Positions 8,183-10,456 of a stretch of 64,000 nucleotides of DNA are shown in pieces; positions within the stretch are counted from its first letter, which is position 1; each line of letters opens with the position of its first letter. The DNA comes from an uncultured Clostridium sp. (GTDB lineage: Bacteria > Bacillota > Clostridia > TANB77 > CAG-508). The stretch spans positions 41,540 to 105,539 of the forward strand of contig CAMLUO010000001.1 of the NCBI GenBank assembly GCA_946487895.1. Reading direction: 5' to 3'. The position numbers and the translations under genes were made by a program. The notes beneath the pieces were generated by a model that did not search any database, was not told the origin of the DNA, and was given only the letters and a program-made list of their open reading frames with translations.

Positions 8183-8302
8183 TTGGAAAAGAATTAAATT
8201 TTGGCAAGGAAAACGAGTTTGAAATTTATGAGGCGTACTTGTTGTACGTTGATTAAATTTCAAATGAAGTTTGACGACGCCAAAATTGTAATTATTTTTC
8301 AA
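8183..8302. repeat. 120-nt MITE-like hairpin element, copy 1
   Basis: Terminal inverted repeats TTGGAAAAGAATTAAATTTTGGC ... GCCAAAATTGTAATTATTTTTCAA. Internal inverted repeats GTTTGAAATTTA/TAAATTTCAAA and CGTAC/GTACG. About 96 percent identical to 10337-10456. Confidence 0.85.
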
Positions 8303-8311
8303 CCTGTCTTC

Positions 8312-9520
8312 CTAATCCCTGACAATTGCATTCTTCTTTCCATCAGCTAACCTTATTAATATTTCATCACCTGATTTTAGTTCTGCCACTTTTTTTACTA
8401 TTTTACCATCTTTTTCTGTAATTGAATATCCTCTTAAAAGTGTTTTTAGTGGACTATATGCATCTAGTTTTGCAGTTAATTCAACAAAGTTTGACTTTTC
8501 TTTTTCATATTTTGTTTTTATTATATTCTCTAATTTTTTTATGTATTGGTCTATTACTAAATATTGTTCTTGTATCTTTCTAGTTGGTTCTTTGAATACA
8601 CTACTTGCCATACATTTTTCATATCTCATCTGCATAAGCTCTACTTTTTTTATTAAAGATATTCTTAATCTATTTTGATATCCTAATATTTTTTGCTTTA
8701 CTTCATAAATATCTGGCACTGCAAGTTCTGCAGCAGCAGATGGTGTTGGAGCTCTTAAGTCTGCAACGAAATCTGATATTGAAAAGTCTGTTTCATGTCC
8801 TACTGCTGATATTATTGGTATTTCTGAAGCATATATTGCTCTTGCAACAATTTCTTCATTGAATGGCCATAAATCTTCTAATGAACCACCACCTCTAGCT
8901 AAAATTAGTACATCAGCTAAGTTATTTTCATTCATATATCTAATTCCATCTGCTATTTTTTCTGCTGCTCCTTCTCCTTGTACTGCTACTGGTAACAATC
9001 TAATGTATACATTTGGATTTCTTCTTGTTGAAACATTTATTATATCTCTTATAACAGAACCAGTCTGAGATGTTAATACCCCTATAACTTTTGGCATTGC
9101 TGGAATAGGTTTTTTATGTATTTCATCAAATAATCCTTCTTTTTCTAATTTTTCTTTTAATTCTTGATATTTTGCATATAAATCACCTACACCCTCTTCT
9201 TCCATGGCTTGTGCATATACTTGGTAAACTCCATCTCTTTCAAATACTGATACACTTCCTAATATAAATACCTTCATTCCATCTTTTGGTGTAAAGTTTA
9301 ATTTTTGTGCATATGATTTAAACATTATACATTTTACTAATGATTTTTCATCTTTTAGCGTAAAATACATATGTCCAGTATAATGATGTTTAAAATTAGA
9401 TATTTCTCCTTTTATTAATATATGATTTAAATATTCATCATTTGCTATTTTTTCTTTTATATATTGATTTAGATAAGATACCGTAATTGCCATATTTGCA
9501 TATTTCATTTTTTTTCTCAT
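8312..9520 (-). CDS. xseA: Exodeoxyribonuclease VII large subunit
   Basis: ITVSYLNQYIK..., OB-fold N-terminus, GRGGGS.EDLW.FN motif. The start codon is uncertain among the first three ATGs. Confidence 0.9.
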   Translation of the reverse strand: MRKKMKYANMAITVSYLNQYIKEKIANDEYLNHILIKGEISNFKHHYTGHMYFTLKDEKSLVKCIMFKSYAQKLNFTPKDGMKVFILGSVSVFERDGVYQVYAQAMEEEGVGDLYAKYQELKEKLEKEGLFDEIHKKPIPAMPKVIGVLTSQTGSVIRDIINVSTRRNPNVYIRLLPVAVQGEGAAEKIADGIRYMNENNLADVLILARGGGSLEDLWPFNEEIVARAIYASEIPIISAVGHETDFSISDFVADLRAPTPSAAAELAVPDIYEVKQKILGYQNRLRISLIKKVELMQMRYEKCMASSVFKEPTRKIQEQYLVIDQYIKKLENIIKTKYEKEKSNFVELTAKLDAYSPLKTLLRGYSITEKDGKIVKKVAELKSGDEILIRLADGKKNAIVRD

Positions 9521-9550
9521 TCCTTTCCCAACTTAAGACACAATACCAAG

Positions 9551-9622
9551 TTAGAAAAAAATTAAATTTTGGCAAGGAAAATGTTTTCATTTGCCACAGC
9601 CAAAATTGTAATTATTTTTCAA
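9551..9622. repeat. Short (72-nt) variant of the MITE-like element, copy 2
   Basis: Same termini (TTAGAAAAAAATTAAATTTTGGCAAGG ... GCCAAAATTGTAATTATTTTTCAA), but the core is replaced by a short GGCAA/TTGCC hairpin. Confidence 0.75.
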
Positions 9623-9656
9623 TTTAACAATAGAAATATTTTTCGTTTTGTATGTT

Positions 9657-10055
9657 CTAGTTTACAATACTTGCTAATACTCCATTAACAAAGTTTTTAG
9701 ATGAATCTTCTCCATATTTCTTAGCTAGTTCTACTGCTTCATTTATAACAACTTTAAATGGTAGTTCTTTATATTGAATTTCATAAATTGCTAATTTCAA
9801 AATTGCTAAATCAATTTTTGAAATTCTATCTAATTTCCAATCTTTTTTTAGATTTTTCTCTATTTGTTCTACTATTTTTTCTTTGTTTTTTTCAATTCCA
9901 AAAACTGCATCTTTTATATATTCTTGTGCATTTTTATCTGTTATTTCATTATTTTCAATATATAAATCTACCGCTTCTTGTAAATCTTCTTGTTTTTGTA
10001 TTTCTAAGCTATATATTAGTTCAAATGCTTTTTCGCGTATTGCTGACCTGTTCAT
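9657..10055 (-). CDS. nusB: Transcription antitermination factor NusB
   Basis: 132 aa with R..A...LY and the FVNGVL motif near the C-terminus. Confidence 0.9.
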
Positions 10056-10078
10056 AATCTTACTTTTCCCCTTTAATT

Positions 10079-10291
10079 CTACATTTTATCTATAAAACCT
10101 TTTAATCTTGATTTTACATCTTCTTTGTTCTGTTGTACATAATTTCCAATAAAAGCACCTAATATTAATACTACAATTGCTAATATTAAGTCATGTAATC
10201 TAGTTACTAAAATTAATATTGCTACTATAATACCAATTATTGCTCCTTTGTATTGACTCCAGAAATTCTTAAAATTATCCATTTGAATCAT
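10079..10291 (-). CDS. Small integral membrane protein (DUF2273-like) of the Asp23 cluster
   Basis: 70 aa with two TM helices. Conserved position after asp23/amaP. Confidence 0.6.
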
Positions 10292-10336
10292 TCCTCTCTG
10301 ATACTTCCAATTATTTTATACTTTACGCAAACCCGA

Positions 10337-10456
10337 TTGGAAAAGAATTAAATTTTGGCTAGGAAAACAAGTTTGAAATTTATGAGGCGTACTATTTGTA
10401 CGTTGATTAAATTTCAAATGCAGTTTGACGACGCCAAAATTGTAATTATTTTTCAA
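10337..10456. repeat. 120-nt MITE-like hairpin element, copy 3
   Basis: See copy 1. Its right terminus overlaps the last codons and the stop of the amaP-like ORF. Confidence 0.85.

Follow-up and report, generated by a model that had tools for sequence, protein, structure and literature searches.

Small palindromic repeats that lie between bacterial genes have been well studied in proteobacteria, pneumococci, and neisseriae, and hardly at all in the uncultured Clostridia that prevail in animal guts. Among the described systems, the REPINs of Pseudomonas and the enterobacteria are hairpins formed by doublets of repetitive extragenic palindromic (REP) sequences and mobilised by RAYT tyrosine transposases, and their ends are conserved, the spacer between them being less so and showing compensatory changes (PMC3116915). 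Each REP end is a 20–40-nt palindrome with a GTAG or CGTC tag, and the single-copy RAYT gene is flanked by repeats (PMC3116915; PMC3733652). Transposable elements of the miniature inverted-repeat type (MITEs) are instead recognised as small, AT-rich, and highly base-paired, with terminal inverted repeats (TIRs), a target-site duplication (TSD), and an insertion sequence (IS) that has matching TIRs; of the repeats discussed along with them, BOX, RUP, and SPRITE lie on the leading strand in about 61% of cases and are depleted between co-transcribed genes, BOX and RUP have TSDs, and orientation-dependent effects on mRNA are described for ERIC, BOX, and Correia (PMC3049150). The present report concerns three hairpin repeats located in the spacers of one operon, within a stretch of 64,000 nt from an uncultured Clostridium sp. 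(contig CAMLUO010000001.1, positions 41,540 to 105,539), hereafter the window. These hairpins probably belong to a family of interspersed palindromic elements that is spread across a lineage of uncultured low-GC gut Clostridia; its members are small, non-coding, and non-autonomous, the enzyme would be supplied in trans, and they would survive in the manner of a cassette. The family is dispersed, strain-polymorphic, derived at this operon, polar, and decaying by internal deletion.

Other systems offer points of comparison as well. The TSD of Correia and RUP is TA. Elements of the IS200/IS605 type leave no TSD, recognise imperfect hairpins in single-stranded DNA that have extrahelical bases, and show a strong strand and orientation bias; each of their ends has its own subterminal hairpin, and a fixed 4–5-nt target is used on one side. 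The attC sites vary in length and are imperfectly palindromic; their ends are conserved, and they have strand-specific extrahelical bases and RYYYAAC ... GTTRRRY core sites. Finally, MIRUs are reportedly repeats that follow the gene direction in the operon spacers of mycobacteria, with stop and start signals overlapping those of the flanking genes; they consist of 40–100-bp direct tandem units with small in-frame open reading frames (ORFs), and are not long palindromes.

The window has a GC content of 28%, and its GC and AT skews are strongly negative, so that the gene-rich minus strand is probably the leading one. The operon lies on this strand in the order fmt, asp23, amaP, a 70-aa DUF2273-like gene, nusB, xseA, xseB, DUF212, and fhs; AmaP was recognised as NF033218 (89.9 bits, cutoff 55), and NusB, XseA, and XseB were also confirmed by NCBIfam. 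The three copies, all on the minus strand, are found 3' of amaP, nusB, and xseA, which is where the original prediction, made without database searches, had placed them. A repeat search of the 64-kb window returned 8183–8302 and 10337–10456 as a 120-nt pair with 96% identity, the value first noted, and found both termini again, in copy 2, at 9550–9581 and 9590–9623. The right terminus (24 nt) occurs exactly three times in the 64 kb, with 0.00 occurrences expected and zero in 100 shuffles, and neither blastn nor an nhmmer profile detected a further full copy within the window. A blastn match at 41.77 kb is unconvincing as an element, its likeness to the left terminus covering only 13 nt.

Read in gene direction, the unit consists of two closing nucleotides, the left terminus T5 (TTGAAAAATAATTACAATTTTGG(C)), a variable hairpin core, the right terminus T3 (GCCAAAATTTAATTCTTTTCCAA), and two more closing nucleotides. 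All three window copies form long hairpins, with z scores of −4 to −8 against dinucleotide shuffles, and the folding is markedly weaker on the mRNA-sense strand (−28 kcal/mol) than on the plus strand quoted in the original prediction (−43 kcal/mol). The long hairpin of the original prediction was real, but not its 120-nt extent, because the two flanking base pairs belong to the hairpin, which makes each 120-nt element a 124-nt structure. Copy 2, which was described as having the same termini and a shortened core, has T5 exactly and T3 with 3 changes, so the first half of this description stands; as to the second, copy 2 is not a shortened form of copy 1 or 3, its 27-nt core beginning CTGTGG, not CGTCGT. 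This core is too short to be assigned to a subtype and aligns equally to several, and its likeness to an ancestral nusB-xseA terminator hairpin is best read as AT-rich coincidence. Regarding copy 3, amaP (10446–11000) overlaps it by 11 nt, and the element thereby supplies the last codons and the stop of this gene, as had been supposed.

Two collections were scanned for the family: species-representative genomes, one per species, with the 21-nt left terminus as the query, and metagenomes, with the other terminus. The first scan gave at least 118 stretches and the second at least 120, and the matches listed include at least 117 and at least 108 copies, respectively, with a sharp length mode at 119–121 nt. 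By a count of assembly prefixes, the matches listed in the first scan come from about 75 species-level metagenome-assembled genomes (MAGs) of human, rabbit, chicken, deer, ruminant, and mouse guts, and the record titles of the copy-bearing MAGs read uncultured Clostridia, Clostridium sp., CAG:245, CAG:780, and similar. No match was found in viral contigs. In these genomes and in gut metagenomes the copies occupy many unrelated loci, preceding unrelated genes, and the flanking genes have no common functional theme. Further copies in the flanking DNA amount to about one per 94 kb, and at this density three full copies in 2.3 kb, plus relics at 4/8 operon junctions, represent real clustering, which arose either by local hopping or at a hot spot. 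Two or three copies or fragments, in tandem or close together in one spacer, were also observed at L011/L023, L037, L055, L067, L093, L122, and L176; such arrays recall the clusters known as BIMEs or those of REPINs.

Presence and absence at the three junctions were compared in ten contigs that encode exactly the NusB of the window, here called sister-strain loci. Copy 1 is present in two of the ten (L007 and L009) and at the same site in the MAG BRZ_GT__bin15 (L112); L002 has the empty allele, which the alignment identifies as a true short allele with a 19-nt xseA-xseB spacer. Copy 2 occurs in eight, L003 and L004 being the two that lack it, and the full form of copy 3 in none: the amaP site holds a 33-nt fusion of both termini in L003 and L004, and T5-only forms that retain the first ~20 nt in L001 and L006. 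In relatives with 79–89% XseA identity the element is absent from all three junctions, and such element-less relatives end AmaP with its own GAAGAAGCATAA and have an xseA-xseB gap of down to 2 nt. Since the junctions are empty in relatives, the insertions of the window are derived and lineage-specific. The empty sites that the original prediction proposed to look for do exist, and the pattern that it set against mobility, i.e., an element confined to this locus and conserved in distant relatives, is the opposite of what was found, with many loci occupied and the relatives empty.

The same distribution bears on a second explanation, according to which the hairpins are inherited vertically as a feature peculiar to the asp23-nusB-xseAB operon, such as a leader, a terminator, or an attenuator. 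Three copies and relics in one operon, with hairpins in transcribed spacers, are what such a feature might look like, but the element also precedes unrelated genes in many genomes and is missing from this operon in relatives. Furthermore, the elements have no sense-strand terminator-like site with a U tract (a weak core-hairpin match lies on the antisense strand only), and no sense-strand promoter, the one candidate being a weak antisense TTGACG-16-TATTTT, while promoter-like sites overall are not above shuffles. With Rfam 15 at the gathering threshold, the only match in the window is 6S RNA, outside the elements; at E ≤ 10 over 8100–10550, the only hit touching an element is bxd_5 (8162–8184, 13.5 bits against a gathering score of 50, E = 5), which is at chance level. 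An operon-specific device is therefore very improbable, having already been refuted by the distribution. The family had not been recognised at the outset, and it has no Rfam match; literature searches found no described equivalent, which is no proof of absence, and the repeat is apparently undescribed.

For the anatomy of the unit, 76 full copies were aligned in the mRNA-sense orientation, in a sample for whose collection T3 was not used. T5 and T3 (~23 nt each) are nearly invariant, in keeping with the inverted-repeat termini first proposed, and their pairing is imperfect: a bulged C interrupts it, as do an A.C mismatch, which is conserved, and a U.C mismatch. For the core, at least four unrelated sequence types are seen; a single long hairpin nevertheless persists in the RNAalifold consensus, in which columns 37/96, 50/83, 51/82, and 60/73 show compensatory changes. 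At the rplI-dnaB site, where 12 strains share one inherited insertion, the variable sites per nucleotide are 0.16 in the core and 0.03–0.04 in the flanks, and 0/46 positions vary in the termini. These copies (L219, L216, L192, L135, L201, L166, L196, L188, L209, L149, L222, and L145) have a core 4–6 times more variable than the 300 nt of flank on each side, with mostly transitions, and the palindrome core appears either hypermutable or under conversion. Variants of 168–171 nt were also noted, in which a GC-richer hairpin of ~50 nt (ACTGAGGCTGTAAC..AACAGCCTCAGT) is nested inside the element (L153, L161, L162, L185, L194, L213, L223, L226, L231, L233, and L241); its different placement in type-B and type-C cores indicates a third small mobile palindrome, inserting into the first.

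A property that the original prediction missed is the polarity of the element, namely its built-in stops, its tail bearing a Shine-Dalgarno (SD) sequence, and its co-orientation with genes. Full copies are co-directional with the adjacent ORF in 81/82 and 80/81 cases in the two samples (~99%), and the downstream start is typically 24–38 nt past the hairpin. Upstream ORFs that abut the element often have their stop within it, at +4 (T|TGA) or +11 (TAA), its first 11 nt (TTGAAAAATAA) stopping upstream reading in two of the three frames. A major class of copies has a conserved 3' tail of ~36 nt, CCWGATTTGTGCCTTAAGAAAGGAATGWGAT, which carries the SD, and the post-hairpin sequence common to many copies before unrelated genes is CCAGATTTGTGCCTTAAGAAAGGAATGnGATTAAA, then ATG. 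In 32/81 copies, again before unrelated genes, the tail is conserved and runs on into the SD, which stands at a fixed distance and is directly joined to a specific 5' part of the tail. Only 2 of the 48 native ribosome-binding sites (RBSs) of the window are tail-like, and both lie beside element parts. In addition, an SD-like motif occurs 3–6 nt before the element in about half of the copies vs ~9% of random sites, from which it follows that the element usually sits at the start-codon position, behind the original SD of the downstream gene, and that the tail supplies a replacement.

A small protein gene or leader peptide, running from the TTG of the element through the hairpin, was also considered. 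Copies 1 and 3 have 40 open codons in frame 1, with an SD-like motif before them, yet this frame is open in only 25/81 copies, and length changes of 1–2 nt, frameshifts, and stops interrupt it elsewhere; moreover, different core types would yield unrelated peptides. This idea is already refuted and has next to no chance of being right. Among known repeats, MIRUs are comparable in polarity: the element likewise follows the gene direction, has stops at +4/+11 and an SD in its tail, and polycistronic translation is preserved, but it consists of one long hairpin and lacks a conserved ORF.

Decay leaves these translation signals in place. At many loci T5 is retained, and deletions of all sizes connect it to the SD of the following gene; in the sample collected by T3, almost every copy is complete, and where T3 stands alone a contig edge is the reason. 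The retention of T5 and SD while the hairpin decays is what would be expected if only the stop codon and the SD were under selection. Two probable relics of this kind are present in the window (Table 1), and the one at 26250–26286 fits the deletion series of other genomes. A T5-only relic is found at the xseB stop in sister strains, and the window is without it. Regarding copy 1, the portion of its tail past ..AAAAG is found in the empty allele L002 too.

Table 1. Element copies, tails, and probable relics in the window.
Feature	Position	Strand	Description
Copy 1	8181..8304	−	124-nt hairpin (8183–8302 plus GG..CC closing pairs); type-A core; between xseA stop and xseB
Copy 1 tail	8143..8180	−	Diverged form of family tail (CCTAATAGAAGCATAAAAGGAAAGGAATGTGAGTAG); holds SD of xseB
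Copy 2	9551..9622	−	72 nt, internally deleted; between nusB and xseA
Copy 2 tail	9521..9550	−	CTTGGTATTGTGTCTTAAGTTGGGAAAGGAATG..; holds SD of xseA
Copy 3	10335..10458	−	124-nt hairpin (10337–10456 plus GA..TC closing pairs); type-A core; between amaP and DUF2273-like gene
Copy 3, first 11 nt (TTGAAAAATAA)	10446..10456	−	..(A)TT GAA AAA TAA, last codons and stop of amaP
Copy 3 tail-like spacer	10292..10334	−	TCGGGTTTGCGTAAAG...GAGAGGAATG; holds SD of next gene
Probable relic	26250..26286	−	First 11 nt of element fused to SD end of tail (TTGAAAAATAA|GTAAGAAAGGAATGAAAT..ATG)
Probable relic	50205..50241	−	Tail (CAGATTTGAGCCTTAGAAAGGAATGAGATTAAAAATG) after degenerate T3-like end, no hairpin

The flanks of the insertions were examined in 81 copies and in a second sample of 96 collected with the other terminus. 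Direct repeats of 2–8 nt, as a TSD would leave, are present in only 0–3 of the 81, and no such TSD was found in the second sample; longer SD-like repeats upstream and downstream are not consistent, and a deviating upstream AAGG is not mirrored downstream. What the flanks have in place of direct repeats is reverse complementarity, in 77/81 copies at ±1 and 67/81 at ±2, falling to 27/81, i.e., chance level, at ±3; the corresponding values in the second sample are 91/96, 72/96, and 31/96. The closing dinucleotide is GG..CC in 27 of the 32 tail-bearing copies, and 32 of the 49 tail-less copies are fully complementary, mostly with pairs other than GG..CC, such as AG..CT, GT..AC, GA..TC, TG..CA, and AT..AT. 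The same closing pairs turn up again in different core types, and since the adjacent termini never vary, their variation is not explicable by point mutation; its origin may lie in a target that is a palindromic tetranucleotide, in a 2-nt step set by the enzyme, or in templated fill-in.

These flanks speak to the nature of the mobility. The original prediction of a non-autonomous mobile or REP/BOX/RUP-like family holds as far as dispersal and polymorphism go, but a MITE in the strict sense was not obtained. A classical TIR MITE would be moved by the DDE transposase of an IS with the same ends, as proposed for RUP, BOX, Correia, and Nezha, and the 120–124-nt element does share the small size, the AT-richness, the absence of coding capacity, the high degree of base pairing, the ~23-nt terminal inverted repeats, and the insertion polymorphism of such elements. 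However, the 81 + 96 copies gave no direct-repeat TSD of 2–8 nt, the flanks being inverted-complementary; the orientation bias is ~99% vs ~61% in BOX, RUP, and SPRITE; and neither the cognate transposase that had been suggested nor any IS with matching ends (GGTTGAAAAATAATTAC..) was found in ~1.9 Mb. As the TSD test fails, the element is not a classical MITE, and we consider this origin improbable. The same points set it apart from Correia/NEMIS of Neisseria, RUP, BOX, and SPRITE of pneumococcus, and ERIC/IRU of enterobacteria, with which it has in common that they are small, AT-rich, non-coding, base-paired, intergenic TIR repeats that are co-transcribed: repeats of the Correia/RUP/BOX type have direct TSDs and a strand bias that mirrors the gene bias (~61%), whereas the present element has no TSD, ~99% co-orientation, and a preference for the region between the SD and the start codon inside operons.

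With respect to folding, the strand antisense to the genes gives the better structure in 73 of the 76 aligned copies (mean −44.3 vs −32.6 kcal/mol). This asymmetry holds inside every core type, goes with about three G-U pairs vs one, and is also obtained with DNA parameters; either strong mRNA hairpins are selected against, or the template strand is the functionally folded one. At the RNA level, 10 nt of the T3 arm (AUUCUUUUCC) can pair, with one G-U, with the SD region of the tail (GGAAAGGAAU). Once the long hairpin has formed, the SD is predicted to be open to the same degree as in an isolated tail; if the T5 arm is blocked in folding, the probability that the SD is unpaired drops from 0.3–0.85 to 0.01–0.3 in 15/17 copies. 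For copy 2, the minimum-free-energy structure itself is the closed one, the SD of xseA being paired with the T3 arm (probability unpaired 0.02). These models make a hairpin-gated RBS possible, the tracts involved being of low complexity.

Such folds would be expected if the element were a host-selected, cis-acting RNA device, maybe a domesticated repeat, that gates the RBS or whose hairpin determines processing or stability. The hairpin would keep the pyrimidine-rich T3 off the tail SD and, once the T5 arm became unavailable, e.g., under a ribosome terminating in T5, T3 would close the RBS and thereby tune translation of the downstream cistron. The near-absolute position at gene starts and in gene orientation, the invariance of the termini across many species, and the closing pairs that stay complementary are consistent with this explanation, as are the 10-nt complementarity and the predicted closure of the SD. 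On the other side, the copies are dispensable, with junctions empty, filled, or decayed among strains of identical NusB and empty in relatives; the hairpin has been lost repeatedly with only stop and SD retained; the core is hypervariable and folds better on the strand that is not the transcribed sense; the flanking genes share no function; and pairing between low-complexity purine and pyrimidine tracts may be incidental. On balance, we regard a host-selected device as a rather unlikely account of the family.

Compared with the described mobile systems, the element is close to REPINs: both are hairpins of ~100 nt with two highly conserved inverted ends, a less conserved pairing spacer, and compensatory changes; both are extragenic, present in tens of copies, and free of a classical TSD; and both are thought to act as folded single-stranded DNA and persist vertically across many species. 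The differences are that T5 and T3 are not self-palindromic beyond AAAAT/ATTTT and hence are not REPs, and that there is no fixed tag, the tetranucleotide by T5 varying (CGTC, CGTT, CTAC, CTGT, CTGC, CGGC...). The hosts are Clostridia, no RAYT was found in the DNA searched, and the strict gene-direction polarity, the SD tail, the stops, and the exactly two variable closing pairs distinguish the present family. As its ends are not tagged REP palindromes, it is no REPIN in the strict sense. Elements of the IS200/IS605 type resemble it in the lack of TSD, the imperfect hairpin, and the strong strand and orientation bias, but the present element is a hairpin over its entire length, its flanks are variable, and there is no linked TnpA. 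Likewise, attC sites share the conserved ends, the variable center, and a location between co-oriented genes, but the ends GGTTGAAAAA ... TTTTCCAACC have no correctly arranged core sites, no integrase or cassette array is present, and the neighbors are housekeeping genes.

The explanation that we prefer, namely an interspersed element served in trans, can be put as follows. An enzyme supplied in trans would make the copies by recognising the two conserved imperfect termini, probably as a folded single strand; copying in this form is suggested by the strand asymmetry, by the bulge and mismatches being conserved, and by flanks that are complementary over exactly 2 bp and show no TSD. The process would follow a REPIN/RAYT-like or IS200/IS605-like logic, not DDE cut-and-paste. 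Survival would be almost restricted to one orientation at gene starts, because an element so oriented would be a self-contained intercistronic cassette: the first 11 nt would stop the upstream frame, the hairpin on the mRNA would be the weaker one, and the tail would restore an SD for the downstream gene whose own SD was displaced. Spread via a trans-acting, structure-specific enzyme is the most likely route, and the polar cassette features would be the reason for persistence. Effects at the host level, such as the mRNA segmentation or stabilisation suggested in the original prediction and gating of the RBS by the T3 arm, are putative and would be secondary; of the two versions of the hairpin, the transcribed strand has the weaker.

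Several observations weigh against this explanation. No mobilising gene was found in the copy neighborhoods examined, and no long element bounded by T5/T3-like ends in ~1.9 Mb. The recurrent neighbors of the copies all have housekeeping functions (rplI/dnaB, miaB-like, infB, polA, and pyk), without any transposase among them. The sole trace of a Y1 transposase is a 39-codon remnant of IS200/IS605 type (MANSLAHTKWNCKYHIVFIPKY...; L008:286–405) that lies in a sister strain with unrelated hairpins, the probe having been an IS200 TnpA sequence. Neither a transposition intermediate nor a recent de novo insertion was seen. In the filled/empty pair at xseA-xseB, the insert is ~143–148 nt with an AGGAA repeat and has no clean boundary. 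Both collection scans selected on exact termini, which exaggerates how conserved the termini look, and the metagenome sample includes 13 copies of one orthologous site. Lastly, the SD-like 3' part of the tail is found without hairpin in 34 cases in 1.9 Mb, including xseB in L002 and L253; these may be relics or a native RBS type, and, as tail-type SDs also occur without hairpins, the last ~15 nt are not firmly cargo rather than target.

Some observations made alongside these searches concern individual loci. L042 and similar cases, tried as a long autonomous element, proved to be separate short copies, and weak matches of the TnpA probe in L032/L033 lie inside a 563-aa ORF. The L008 remnant is preceded by a GC-rich hairpin and lies between fmt and a 660-aa ORF, with a gene order upstream of asp23 unlike that of the window. 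In L253, which has 79% XseA identity, the xseA-xseB spacer (locus 4698–4716) has TTAAGAAGGGAATGTGATTAAAAATG before xseB, identical to the family tail at 25/26 nt and without hairpin; this may be a relic of great age, or else it may point to an xseB-type RBS as the source of the tail.

A bolder proposal, which we offer tentatively and hold to be rather unlikely, is that the element belongs to an unrecorded, structure- and strand-specific mobilisation system of Clostridia, of REPIN/RAYT-like logic and unrelated sequence. In this proposal, a portable stop-hairpin-SD cassette would home to translation-initiation regions, leave 2-bp inverted flanks and no TSD, and repeatedly donate RBSs to core genes, with tail-only relics before xseB and others, and possibly a hairpin-gated RBS. 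Whatever the system, the family is an example of a selfish repeat that sits inside essential operons (rplI/dnaB; around nusB and xseAB) and carries translation punctuation, and because this punctuation is left after hairpin loss, the C-termini (here that of AmaP) and the RBSs of core genes have probably been rewritten. The search for the mobilising enzyme can start from the consistent strand asymmetry and from the inverted flanks of exactly 2 bp that occur in place of a TSD. From a practical viewpoint, the element breaks assemblies, as judged from the many copies at contig ends, and its copies are strain-level presence/absence markers for organisms known from MAGs only.

A few other features of the region were noted. 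A second family of small palindromic repeats, unrelated and with GGGGAC / TAGGGA motifs (e.g., GGGGACGGTCCTAAAAATCCCTGTTTTTAGGGATTTAGGGATGGACC), is found in operon spacers of this type and is likewise polymorphic among strains; it was seen at ~50290–50345 (minus strand) of the window, in xseA-xseB of L004/L249, and in the DUF212-fhs spacer of L252 and L004. In the nusB-xseA spacer of L004 and L250, a terminator-like hairpin, AAAAATGTTTCT..AGAAACATTTTTT, follows nusB, and only its 5' half is left at 9623–9656 of the window, directly before copy 2, so that a probable terminator or attenuator was lost, either through the insertion of copy 2 or through a deletion after it. The fmt-asp23 spacer (window ~11533–11619) has a palindrome, TTGATATACTTAT...ATAAGTATATC, which is also present in L001–L007, L249, L250, and L252 and is probably the operator or terminator of the asp23 operon; unlike the mobile hairpins, it is kept even in more distant relatives. 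Finally, the 6S/SsrS RNA (RF00013) lies at 38867–39059 on the minus strand of the window, with 86.5 bits vs a gathering score of 46.4.

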